DNA of 64,000 bases from an uncultured delta proteobacterium (GCA_963827685.1 CAWHBU010000004.1:608001-672000); one strand, 5' to 3'. Shown: positions 28,042 through 49,464, counted from the first letter of the stretch. Numbers and translations are program-made. Notes: generated by a model not told the origin, from the letters alone.

Positions 28042-28580
28042 AAAAAATACCTGTTGAATACCGCCCAGCTCTGCTGGGCGGATGAAAACAGGTTCGCGAA
28101 GCGATAAGACATGGTATAAGTACTGCATGAGCTCGATAAAAAGAACAAGCCATGCGGTCTACGATTTGAAATATCATATGGTATGGGTTCCCAAATATCG
28201 GAAGATGATATTGGGAGGTGAGTTGGCAAAAAGGCTTAAGATGAGTTTTGAGCAAATATCGGAGAGGTACGAGTTTGAGATAGATACGATGGAGGTAAAG
28301 GATGATCATGTTCATTTATTTTTGTCTGCCCCTCCTCGGTATTGTCCGGCAGAGATTGTGCAGATCATAAAGAGTATCTCGGCGAAAATGGTGTTCAAGC
28401 AGTTTCCAGAGGTGAAGAAAGAGCTTTGGGGTGGAGAGTTTTGGAGTGATGGGTATTTTGTTCGGTCTGTTGGAGACAAAGTTACCTCTGAAGTCATACG
28501 TCGCTATATAAAGTATCAGCAACAGGAGCAATTAAGTTTTGAATTTTAATGCCCCGCAGCTCTGCTGCGGGGTTCTTTAC
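28042..28580 (+). mobile_element. IS200/IS605-family element, tnpA only, copy 1 (539 bp)
   Basis: Subterminal hairpins CCGCCCAGC-TCT-GCTGGGCGG and CCCCGCAGC-TCT-GCTGCGGGG; inserted after TTTAT; appears identical to copies 2 and 3. Confidence 0.95.
28127..28549 (+). CDS. tnpA: IS200 HUH/Y1 transposase (start 28127, or 28082)
   Basis: YHMVWVPKYR, DHVHLF (HUH), FWSDGYF, YIKYQ. Confidence 0.95.
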   Translation: MSSIKRTSHAVYDLKYHMVWVPKYRKMILGGELAKRLKMSFEQISERYEFEIDTMEVKDDHVHLFLSAPPRYCPAEIVQIIKSISAKMVFKQFPEVKKELWGGEFWSDGYFVRSVGDKVTSEVIRRYIKYQQQEQLSFEF

Positions 28581-34508: not shown

Positions 34509-34537
34509 TTGACAAATGGGCTTTGTAGGATTACAAT
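34509..34537 (+). promoter_or_regulatory. Sigma70 promoter of the hgc operon
   Basis: TTGACA-17 bp-TACAAT. Confidence 0.75.
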
Positions 34538-34593
34538 CAGCACAAACTGACAATTCAGATAAGTCAGCCATTCCTGTAACTGGAGGTGATGAA

Positions 34594-34872
34594 ATGCCCA
34601 AAAGAAATCAAAAGGCCTGCTGCTCCCCTGCGGGAATGGGGAGCAATTATTGTAAAGTCGAGTCGATCATCAGTGTCGACGAACGAGGACAGATGGTGCT
34701 TCCTAAAGAATTGAGGGATAGGGCAAATATTCGCCCGGGGGATAAGCTGGCCATTGTCAGCTGGGATAAAGGCGGAGAGGTTTGCTGCATCTATTTGATC
34801 AAAGCAGAATATCTGGCAGAGCGTGTGAAGGATTTTCTGGGTCCCATGATGAAAGGCATCGCCACAACCTGA
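34594..34872 (+). CDS. AbrB/MazE-fold, Cys-rich HgcAB-associated protein (HgcC-like)
   Basis: VDERGQMVLPKELR..IRPGDKL AbrB motif, two CC pairs, directly upstream of hgcA; SD GGAGGTG. Confidence 0.8.
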   Translation: MPKRNQKACCSPAGMGSNYCKVESIISVDERGQMVLPKELRDRANIRPGDKLAIVSWDKGGEVCCIYLIKAEYLAERVKDFLGPMMKGIATT

Positions 34873-35005: not shown

Positions 35006-35031
35006 TGGAGGGGCTCAGTTGAGCCTACCCA
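35006..35031 (+). promoter_or_regulatory. Putative bacterial SECIS for hgcA UGA 34995-34997
   Basis: Stem GGCTC/GAGCC with loop AGTT beginning 20 nt after the UGA; extended by TGG/CCA. Confidence 0.6.
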
Positions 35032-35670
35032 GTTTAAAGCAACCCTTTGTCCTCGGTTTGATCCAAACCCCGGTTGGCCCAGTGCCTCAAGTCTCGTCAT
35101 CCCTTGGTTGGACAGACCATTTAGGAACTTTTAAGACTCGTTGGGGGATAGGCCGCATGCATTATACCATCGAGCCCGGTCTTTATGCCTTGGGAAAACC
35201 CGATGAGCAATCGCCGGTCTTGGTGACAGCCAATTATAAGATGAGCTTTGACAAGCTCCGTGAGGCATTGCCGGGCCGGAACATGTGGATACTGGTCCTG
35301 GATACGGGAGGCATCAATGTCTGGTGCGCTTCGGGGAAGGGGACCTTCGGGACGATGGAACTTGTTGGACGAATCAAATCGAGTGGCCTAAGCCAGATCG
35401 TTTCGCATCGGGAGTTGATTTTGCCTCAGTTGTCGGGCCCGGGAATTGCGGCTCATCATGTCAAGAAATTATCCGGCTTCAAAGTGATTTACGGCCCCAT
35501 CCGGGCGACCGATCTTCCAACTTTCTTGGAAGCCGGACTTAAAGCGACACTGGAGATGAGGCTCAAGACCTTTACGACCTTGGAGCGCATGGTACTCATC
35601 CCGATGGAACTTGTCTTAGCCCTAAAGGCGGGTATGATTGTCATTCCTATCATGCTTCTCTTGGCTTTAT

Positions 35671-36209
35671 AAAAAATACCTGTTGAATACCGCCCAGCTC
35701 TGCTGGGCGGATGAAAACAGGTTCGCGAAGCGATAAGACATGGTATAAGTACTGCATGAGCTCGATAAAAAGAACAAGCCATGCGGTCTACGATTTGAAA
35801 TATCATATGGTATGGGTTCCCAAATATCGGAAGATGATATTGGGAGGTGAGTTGGCAAAAAGGCTTAAGATGAGTTTTGAGCAAATATCGGAGAGGTACG
35901 AGTTTGAGATAGATACGATGGAGGTAAAGGATGATCATGTTCATTTATTTTTGTCTGCCCCTCCTCGGTATTGTCCGGCAGAGATTGTGCAGATCATAAA
36001 GAGTATCTCGGCGAAAATGGTGTTCAAGCAGTTTCCAGAGGTGAAGAAAGAGCTTTGGGGTGGAGAGTTTTGGAGTGATGGGTATTTTGTTCGGTCTGTT
36101 GGAGACAAAGTTACCTCTGAAGTCATACGTCGCTATATAAAGTATCAGCAACAGGAGCAATTAAGTTTTGAATTTTAATGCCCCGCAGCTCTGCTGCGGG
36201 GTTCTTTAC
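35671..36209 (+). mobile_element. tnpA: IS200 element copy 2, inside hgcA (tnpA 35756-36178)
   Basis: Same 539-bp sequence as copy 1, inserted after TTTAT. Confidence 0.95.
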
Positions 36210-36631
36210 TTGGGAAGTCAGGAGAAGGTTGGACGAATGCCTTCAGCCATGGCCTTTTCTCTATTCTGGCCATCCTGACTGCCATTCTGGTTGGTGCAGT
36301 TCTAACACCTTTGTTGCTGCCATGGCTGCCGGGCAGGGCCTTTTCAGTCAAGGGCTTCAGTATAGGGGGTCTCACCGTTGCAGCCCTCTTGGTTTTTCGC
36401 TGGAATGATTGGGTCACGTGGGGGGGACGTCTCGAAATATTGGCTTGGCTCTTTTTTATACCTGCGGCCTCGGCTTATCTGGCAATGAATTTCACGGGAG
36501 CTTCAACATTTACCTCCCTCTCCGGGGTCAGAAAAGAAATGCGGTGGGCTTTGCCGCTTGAAATTGGTGCTGGAATTGTAGGTCTCGGTCTTTGGCTCGG
36601 ATCAAACTTCCTCGCATAAGGAGTTCAAACG

Positions 36632-36979
36632 ATGAATCCATTGATTTATCTTAGAGATGTTGTCACATTAAAGCTTGATCCCCAAAAATGCATGGGGTGC
36701 GGAACGTGTCTTTTGGTATGTCCCCATGCCGTCCTCAGCCTGACCAATGGCAAAATTGAGATCGCAAATCGAGACGCCTGCATGGAATGTGGCGCCTGCG
36801 CCCGAAATTGTCCTGCCGAGGCTCTGAATGTGCGCTCAGGGGTGGGTTGTGCAACGGCCGTGATCAATGGCATGCTGGGGCGAAAGAAATCTTCCTGCTG
36901 CTGCACGATCGATTCCGAAGAAAAATTAAGTAGTCCTTCCGAATGTTCTCCCGGTGCTAACCGTACAGACTGCTGTTAG
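36632..36979 (+). CDS. hgcB: Mercury methylation ferredoxin HgcB
   Basis: Two CxxCxxCxxxCP motifs, CMECGAC and GVGCA signatures, C-terminal Cys clusters; immediately after hgcA. Confidence 0.93.
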   Translation: MNPLIYLRDVVTLKLDPQKCMGCGTCLLVCPHAVLSLTNGKIEIANRDACMECGACARNCPAEALNVRSGVGCATAVINGMLGRKKSSCCCTIDSEEKLSSPSECSPGANRTDCC

Positions 36980-48925: not shown

Positions 48926-49464
48926 AAAAAATACCTGTTGAATACCGCCCAGCTCTGCTGGGCGGATGAAAACAGGTTCGCGAAGCGATAAGACATGGTA
49001 TAAGTACTGCATGAGCTCGATAAAAAGAACAAGCCATGCGGTCTACGATTTGAAATATCATATGGTATGGGTTCCCAAATATCGGAAGATGATATTGGGA
49101 GGTGAGTTGGCAAAAAGGCTTAAGATGAGTTTTGAGCAAATATCGGAGAGGTACGAGTTTGAGATAGATACGATGGAGGTAAAGGATGATCATGTTCATT
49201 TATTTTTGTCTGCCCCTCCTCGGTATTGTCCGGCAGAGATTGTGCAGATCATAAAGAGTATCTCGGCGAAAATGGTGTTCAAGCAGTTTCCAGAGGTGAA
49301 GAAAGAGCTTTGGGGTGGAGAGTTTTGGAGTGATGGGTATTTTGTTCGGTCTGTTGGAGACAAAGTTACCTCTGAAGTCATACGTCGCTATATAAAGTAT
49401 CAGCAACAGGAGCAATTAAGTTTTGAATTTTAATGCCCCGCAGCTCTGCTGCGGGGTTCTTTAC
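48926..49464 (+). mobile_element. tnpA: IS200 element copy 3 (tnpA 49011-49433)
   Basis: Same 539-bp sequence, inserted after TTTAT in an intergenic repeat. Confidence 0.95.

Follow-up and report, generated by a model that had tools for sequence, protein, structure and literature searches.

An IS200-type insertion sequence splits the mercury methylation gene hgcA of an uncultured Syntrophaceae-related bacterium

Insertion sequences (IS) of the IS200 group, such as IS200 of Salmonella, which is ~700 bp long, and IS1541 of Yersinia, carry tnpA as their only gene, and IS200 proper transposes very rarely in Salmonella. Reversible inactivation of a gene by an IS is known from IS492 in Pseudoalteromonas eps and from IS256 in Staphylococcus ica, where reversion was shown and linked to the phenotype. 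Elements of the IS200/IS605 family, which includes IS608 (Helicobacter pylori) and ISDra2 (Deinococcus radiodurans), excise without gain or loss of DNA (PMC3201880, PMC5027513; these and the other papers are cited throughout for individual passages). Here, we describe a 539-bp, tnpA-only element of this family that lies inside hgcA, the gene for the mercury methylation protein HgcA, in an uncultured, Syntrophaceae-related sediment member of Thermodesulfobacteriota known from a MAG-like (metagenome-assembled genome) assembly (G000; 5.23 Mb, 14 contigs, completeness 94.5%, contamination 8.0%). The window, i.e., the whole stretch of DNA that was analyzed, is 64,000 nt long (GCA_963827685.1 CAWHBU010000004.1:608001-672000), and positions are counted from its first letter unless a contig is named.

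Truncations of HgcA have been engineered: in HgcA of D. desulfuricans ND132, methylation was lost when a stop codon followed residue 166 or 187 (PMC7305189, Cooper et al. 2020, who cite Smith et al. 2015), as it is when the transmembrane domain is deleted (PMC7305189, citing Smith 2015). An IS inside hgcA was not described in the literature that we searched, which did not extend to the supplementary methylator catalogues that possibly list truncated hgcA genes. In the passages concerned, McDaniel et al. 2020 (PMC7438021) report that, among hgcA genes, they found none with a known insertion sequence or transposase close by, and those of PMC4914508 and PMC12997803 are not concerned with a broken hgcA.

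The interrupted gene and the inserted element

Reading of the sequence together with the list of open reading frames (ORFs) revealed that the hgcA frame starts at 35019 and reads ...GCT TTA T|AA, ending at a TAA (35670-35672) that is composed of the final T of hgcA and the first two A of an insert. The break point is 35670|35671, the insert occupies 35671-36209, and the hgcA frame restarts at 36210 (T TGG GAA G...), 2 bases off the frame of the 5' part. Since 539 equals 3 x 179 + 2 and the two parts are 2 bases out of frame, excising the insert in silico restores GCT TTA TTT GGG AAG. A preliminary description of this DNA had placed a 539-bp tnpA-only IS200 after the first transmembrane helix of HgcA, creating a TAA, and this was correct to the base; the seamless A-L-F-G-K frame that it derived by deleting 35671-36209 is likewise borne out, both by the sequence and by the public contigs described below. 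The insertion is no chance pattern. The parts of the gene and of the element are:

35019 to 35670, + strand: 5' part of hgcA, 217 amino acids, with the corrinoid-binding domain, the cap-helix NVWCASGK and the first hydrophobic helix (ORF 35019-35672)
35666 to 35670, + strand: target and left cleavage site TTTAT (core TTAT), which belongs to hgcA and not to the IS and is kept in empty-site contigs
35671 to 36209, + strand: tnpA-only IS200/IS605-family insertion sequence, 539 bp, present in 18 copies in the genome and exactly skipped by contigs of the public runs X2 and X3
35686 to 35710, + strand: left end, with candidate guide AATA (35686-35689) and a subterminal hairpin (35690-35710) of a 9-bp stem and a 3-nt loop
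35756 to 36178, + strand: tnpA, encoding a Y1/HUH transposase of 140 amino acids from a conserved ATG at 35756, in an ORF that is open from 35711
36177 to 36209, + strand: right end, with candidate guide AATG (36177-36180), hairpin (36181-36201) and right cleavage site TTAC (36206-36209)
36210 to 36619, + strand: 3' part of hgcA (start 36210/36212), with the remaining transmembrane helices and an intact frame

The HgcA equivalog model of NCBIfam (HgcA_corrinoid, NF040863, 325 positions) is matched over its full length, but as two pieces flanking the IS. The 5' part scores 314.2 bits over profile positions 1-195, against a cut-off of 275, and the 3' part 124.2 bits over positions 201-324; in a six-frame search of the genome the pieces split at 1-198 and 199-324. 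The translated 5' part contains INVWCASGKG, in agreement with what we take to be the cap-helix motif of HgcA, N(V/I)WCA(A/G/S)GK with its Cys ligand. The role of this Cys is covered in PMC7305189. A Kyte-Doolittle scan assigned a single hydrophobic segment (residues 190-217) to the 5' part and three or more to the 3' part, and a single polypeptide with a corrinoid domain and a five-helix membrane domain is not encoded, as the stop comes after the first hydrophobic segment. There is no good start codon in the 3' frame before TTG 36311. The six-frame search of the assembly revealed no second hgcA, the only further match being a CdhD-like paralogue with 73.8 bits.

Three independent lines of evidence fix the boundaries of the element. 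Twelve intact relative hgcA genes (67-86% nucleotide identity) are colinear without a gap wherever the alignment reaches the junction; in one of them (L027), the 5' part stops one base before the first position of the 3' part. We then turned to public genomes for another 80 related hgcA loci, of which 79 hold both parts and 1 runs off its contig. The parts lie exactly one codon apart, this being the codon omitted from the queries, in 76 of the 79, two codons apart in 2, and at a projected spacing of -21 in 1; none of the 79 is interrupted at the split position. Finally, public contigs join 35670 directly to 36210 and skip 539 nt, the joint being unambiguous (both=0). Two other placements were considered and rejected. 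Were the element 540 bp long, taking in the invariant T that follows TTTAC, hgcA would lack one base and lose its frame; the public contigs, moreover, retain this T and skip 539 nt exactly. Boundaries shifted to the left over the shared TTTA, which would give an empty site TTTAC-TTGGG as in L027 and L033, are ruled out by the joint of 35670 to 36210 and also contradict the guide/cleavage logic described below.

Among public hgcA loci, the closest ones come from MAGs that carry the label Syntrophaceae, Thermodesulfobacteriota or Deltaproteobacteria, the best having 91% amino-acid identity, and within the genus, 23 of the 41 genomes searched (G000 included) have an hgcA match over the cut-off, indicating that intact hgcA is common there. 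As a separate observation, profile positions 181-218 are missing from the hgcA match of one same-class relative (G032:C4:1515-2381); as its two pieces share an open frame and are separated by 3 bases, the gene may have undergone an internal deletion close to the same domain boundary.

The transposase encoded by the insert matches Pfam Y1_Tnp (PF01797; 143.1 bits, cut-off 23) and the NCBIfam equivalog transpos_IS200 (NF033573; 158.1 bits, cut-off 55), and aligns over its full length with 8 solved IS200/IS605 TnpA sequences (E 7e-31 to 2e-18), including PDB 2ec2, 2f4f, 2xm3 and 2vjv. In these alignments the HxH and YIxxQ stretches correspond (HVHLF to HIHLF, rrYIkyQ to kkYIeeQ). The element therefore shares a Y1/HUH TnpA with IS608 (2vjv/2a6m) and ISDra2 (2xm3). 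As ATG 35756 is kept in five of five related elements, it is likely the start of tnpA. The preliminary description had also considered tnpA, both halves of hgcA and the adjacent hgcB to be otherwise intact, and the profile matches agree. The stop codon of tnpA, TAA 36176-36178, shares a reading frame with the 3' part of hgcA, such that one stop separates the transposase and membrane-domain frames; this is probably a coincidence.

Both ends of the element carry subterminal hairpins and no terminal inverted repeats, as in IS608 and ISDra2, and the hairpins are conserved in all five related elements. The left hairpin folds as single-stranded DNA with -17.2 kcal/mol (z -6.49), and its foot is 19 nt from the cleavage site, as is that of IS608 (He et al. 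2011, PMC3201880). The right hairpin, a perfect 9-bp stem (-13.1 kcal/mol, z -4.59), lies 8 nt from its cleavage site, unlike the 10 nt of IS608, from which the element also differs in that its hairpins are perfect 9-bp stems. With its T-rich tail, the right hairpin also forms an intrinsic-terminator-like site (36180-36202) in the direction of hgcA.

In IS608, 4-nt guides recognize the cleavage sites, with pairing of A+16 to T-3 and A+17 to T-4 (PMC5934647, PMC3201880). Every guide/cleavage position of the present element can pair under this scheme: the tetranucleotides 5' of the hairpins are complementary to the cleavage sites (AATA/TTAT on the left, AATG/TTAC on the right), so that the T/C difference between the cleavage sites is mirrored by an A/G difference between the guides, as would be expected if both were guides of the IS608 and ISDra2 kind. 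In one relative (G019), GATG is combined with TCAC, which adds a second compensatory change. These features indicate that the hgcA copy would carry everything in cis that the IS200/IS605 family needs. Surrounding the left guide and hairpin there is also an outer 7-bp stem (35678-35684/35716-35722) that overlaps the upstream in-frame ATG at 35711, and that could mask the left guide or stop read-through into tnpA.

The target is TTTAT^T. TTTAT precedes the left end in 18 of 18 genome copies and in four of four related elements, and a T follows the right end in all 18 copies, even though only 5019 of the 16290 TTTAT sites in the genome are followed by T. Target choice in the IS200/IS605 family depends in part on the base that directly follows the cleavage site (Morero et al. 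2018, PMC5934647), which would account for the invariant T. The sense strand of hgcA, with the insert removed, holds three TTTAT and a single TTTATT, and it is this TTTATT that the IS occupies. Insertion took place 3' of the pentanucleotide with no target-site duplication, given that empty-site contigs show neither duplication nor loss; in this respect the element resembles IS608 and ISDra2, which insert 3' of a 4-5-nt target.

The element differs from IS608 and ISDra2 in lacking tnpB, in its length of 539 bp and in its target, which is TTTAT^T rather than TTAC or TTGAT, and its transposition and excision are predicted from its sequence. With the IS200 group it shares the tnpA-only organization, the transpos_IS200 match and a structure at the left end in which the region upstream of tnpA is enclosed. 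It is shorter than IS200 and present in 18 near-identical copies.

Two further genes of the locus flank hgcA:

34516 to 34872, + strand: hgcC, an intact AbrB/MazE-type HgcAB-associated protein (NF040962 126 bits, cut-off 70; PF04014)
36632 to 36979, + strand: hgcB, an intact ferredoxin gene adjacent to hgcA (NF040864 120.2 bits, cut-off 99)

A promoter-like site (34509-34537; 11 of 12 matches, by consensus match only) lies upstream of hgcC.

Occupied and empty alleles and the copies of the element

Of 22 public sequencing runs, 20 contain part of the window; we compared four of these (X1-X4) at the level of contigs or unitigs, which drop rare variants. In run X1 (share 0.88), unitigs covering 35160-35695 and 36181-36608 extend across both hgcA-IS junctions with 0 differences. 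They reach 25 and 29 letters into the IS, below the 31-letter rule for bridging, and end 30 nt into the sequence common to all copies (TTTAT plus IS, and IS plus T), where a 31-mer graph must break. The depth in X1 was ~49-69 in the IS vs. ~5 in the flanks. Run X2, from another study, contains a 1080-nt contig (35177-35670 joined to 36210-36795; 3 differences, depth 14.8) that skips the IS exactly, and run X3, from the same study as X1, contains a 226-nt contig with the empty-site joint (0 differences, depth 3.5). The empty-site junction predicted in the preliminary description was therefore exactly right. The empty hgcA site was found in two of the four runs compared, with flanks that are 99.7-100% identical to the window. 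Run X4 holds a more distant intact hgcA, joined 35651 to 36210 with 19 replaced letters. The presence of near-identical wild populations with intact hgcA implies that the insertion is young and a segregating polymorphism.

The IS-like contigs of X2 diverge from the element (5-7 differences per 244-284 nt) and have a depth of ~1.2-1.9 times that of the flanks; with few and divergent IS copies, the X2 lineage looks like one that never had the IS burst. The IS ends in X2 and X3 run into flanks that, by eye, differ from all 17 with which they were compared in this genome; copies of the element or of close variants therefore occupy other sites in those communities. Runs X5-X16 contain 0.28-0.33 of the sampled words, approximately the IS share of the stretch, and the RNA runs X17-X20 contain only 0.07-0.09.

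Quantification of the IS in the genome revealed 18 copies, of which 17 are identical and 1 differs by one C>T, at position 25, implying a recent burst. Three copies, all on the + strand, lie inside the window; apart from the one in hgcA, these and the copies in other split genes are:

28042 to 28580 (G000 C4:636042-636580), + strand: second identical copy, two codons from the end of a minus-strand Hsp20-like ORF
48926 to 49464 (G000 C4:656926-657464), + strand: third identical copy, 20 codons into an ORF
G000 C2:1156873-1157411 (L015), C4:260415-260953 (L008), C4:265626-266164 (L007) and C4:251711-252249 (L009): copies in an asparagine synthase gene (Pfam Asn_synthase 1-40|45-338, amidotransferase domain upstream) and a DJ-1/PfpI gene (Pfam profile 2-63|67-163), both split seamlessly, and in the two probably split genes named below

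When the IS was removed in silico, long open frames crossed at least 5 of 17 junctions. A gene with a 4Fe-4S ferredoxin domain and one further ORF are probably split by the same IS. Since unrelated genes are also split, collateral damage of an IS burst fits better than dedicated control of hgcA.

The orientation of the copies agrees with the sign of GC skew in 17 of 18 cases when skew is taken over ±50 kb (binomial p 0.00014) or ±100 kb, and in 15 of 18 over ±25 kb; the hgcA copy obeys this rule. The tracking of GC skew suggests that the top strand of the element lies on the lagging-strand template. Such placement favors excision and insertion, and a bias of this kind is reported for the IS200/IS605 family (Lavatine et al. 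2016, PMC5027513), IS608 and ISDra2 included.

Full-length relatives of the IS numbered four (78-90% identity); they occur in other genera of the same family and have flanks identical in type (TTTAT, T). We also observed many short, tnpA-less derivatives in the relatives G062, G063, G050 and G015 (e.g., G062:C179:1-271; L041), in which a left end (~60-117 nt) is fused to a right end (~50-158 nt), with up to 30 matches in one genome; these look like PATE/MITE-type non-autonomous elements. Separately, G000 contains three copies of a second IS200-type element that is 68% identical over part of tnpA (C4:880339-880553, C2:1198242-1198456 and C2:115241-115455; L019-L021).

Alternative explanations of the split gene

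We consider it highly probable that hgcA has suffered an ordinary, recent IS knock-out that is reversible in principle. In this scenario, a tnpA-only member of the IS200/IS605 family would have recently multiplied in the genome, moving as single-stranded DNA by 'peel and paste', and one of its 18 copies would have integrated 3' of the sole sense-strand TTTAT^T site in hgcA. The insertion would cut HgcA short, leaving the corrinoid domain and helix 1, and the knock-out would be a young polymorphism that segregates alongside the uninterrupted gene in near-identical wild populations. As all cis and trans requirements for seamless excision appear to be present, reversion would be possible in principle, and precise excision in this organism is mechanistically plausible.

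Several observations weigh against this account. The X1 unitigs fall short of bridging the element, and X1 is possibly the source sample of the window and would then not be independent of it. The agreement with GC skew, which is a proxy for replication direction, fades over short distances (13 of 18 at ±10 kb). A second intact hgcA could lie in unassembled sequence, with completeness and contamination at the values given above. The loss of methylation is extrapolated from mutants of another species that were cut before any membrane helix and not after the first.

The preliminary description went further and proposed that the IS could act as a reversible switch. In the full form of this reading, one clonal population would lose and regain mercury methylation through insertion and precise excision, with the polymorphism maintained because switching is advantageous. 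Much of what that proposal was built on stands, namely the intact IS, the empty site, the truncation and the gene call by the profile model; the selected switch itself did not find support, and we regard it as unlikely. In its favor, the empty site in X3 is exact, with 0 differences over 226 nt, and comes from the same study as the occupied X1; tnpA, both hairpins, guides and cleavage sites are intact; the top strand appears to lie on the lagging-strand template; and excision in this family is seamless (PMC3201880, PMC5027513). Because elements of this family leave no scar at an emptied site, however, an ancestral empty allele is indistinguishable from a revertant one in these data, and since X1 and X3 are different samples, their contigs can show neither both alleles in one clone nor a direction of change. 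The circle junction that the preliminary description had named, i.e., a joint that goes back from the right end to the left end, was listed in none of the four runs, which says little for contigs that drop rare variants, and right-end/left-end junctions numbered 0 in the genome assembly. TTTAT is missing at the homologous hgcA position in eight of eight relatives, which have TTTAC, TTTTT, TTATG or ATGCC instead. There is thus no conserved landing pad, and, with none of the 79 related loci interrupted, no conserved site dedicated to switching; moreover, the same IS has hit unrelated genes. The locus resembles the IS492 and IS256 cases in that an IS sits in a non-essential gene whose function its precise loss would restore, and differs from them in that only two alleles are seen here, in separate metagenome samples. 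If a toggle did exist, the occupied and empty alleles of sister sediment samples would represent a single lineage in two states and not two lineages, and hgcA counts in metagenomes would over- or understate the methylation potential depending on IS activity.

Could one of the 18 near-identical repeats simply have been misplaced into an intact hgcA during assembly? Such repeats invite misjoins, the contamination estimate is 8%, and the empty allele occurs in a sister sample of the same study. This explanation is nevertheless extremely improbable in view of the independent Logan unitigs of X1, which hold both hgcA-IS junctions with 0 differences and end where the k=31 graph must, the canonical TTTAT^T target at the site, and the absence of any target duplication or rearrangement. 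Also very improbable is a split but functional HgcA, in which the corrinoid fragment, including helix 1, and a membrane fragment translated on its own would reassemble, bridged by HgcB. The published model, in which HgcB connects two HgcA domains that have no contact with each other (PMC7305189), and the intact 3' part speak for this idea. On the other hand, the first start in the 3' part, TTG 36311, would drop helix 2, the 3' part comes after the terminator-like hairpin, and none of the 79 related loci shows a natural split at this site.

Probable consequences for HgcA and for surveys of hgcA

Under the knock-out reading, the present product would be a truncated HgcA, as the preliminary description had stated. 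As in the engineered ND132 truncations (PMC7305189), the transmembrane domain is removed and the corrinoid domain is intact; unlike them, the break here is natural and caused by an IS, one membrane helix is kept, the downstream remainder of the gene is intact, and the phenotype is predicted. Given the methylation defect of the ND132 mutants, a truncated HgcA that consists of the corrinoid domain and the first helix should be inactive, and the strain is most likely a non-methylator. As there is no start before TTG 36311 and the right hairpin is terminator-like, expression of the 3' part of hgcA, and perhaps of hgcB, is doubtful; the hairpin with its T-run may dampen transcription into both.

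The 5' fragment alone exceeds the cut-off of the HgcA model, and hidden Markov model searches will therefore score the strain as hgcA-positive, an outcome that the preliminary description had anticipated correctly. In surveys, the presence of hgcA is taken as a sign of methylmercury risk, and this genome passes the HgcA model yet very probably cannot methylate. The occupied and empty alleles in near-identical populations are a natural pair with which to test the role of hgcA in its host. From the standpoint of transposon biology, this IS is a compact and apparently active member of the IS200 group, with a clean TTTAT^T target, compensatory variation between guides and cleavage sites, and tnpA-less derivatives.

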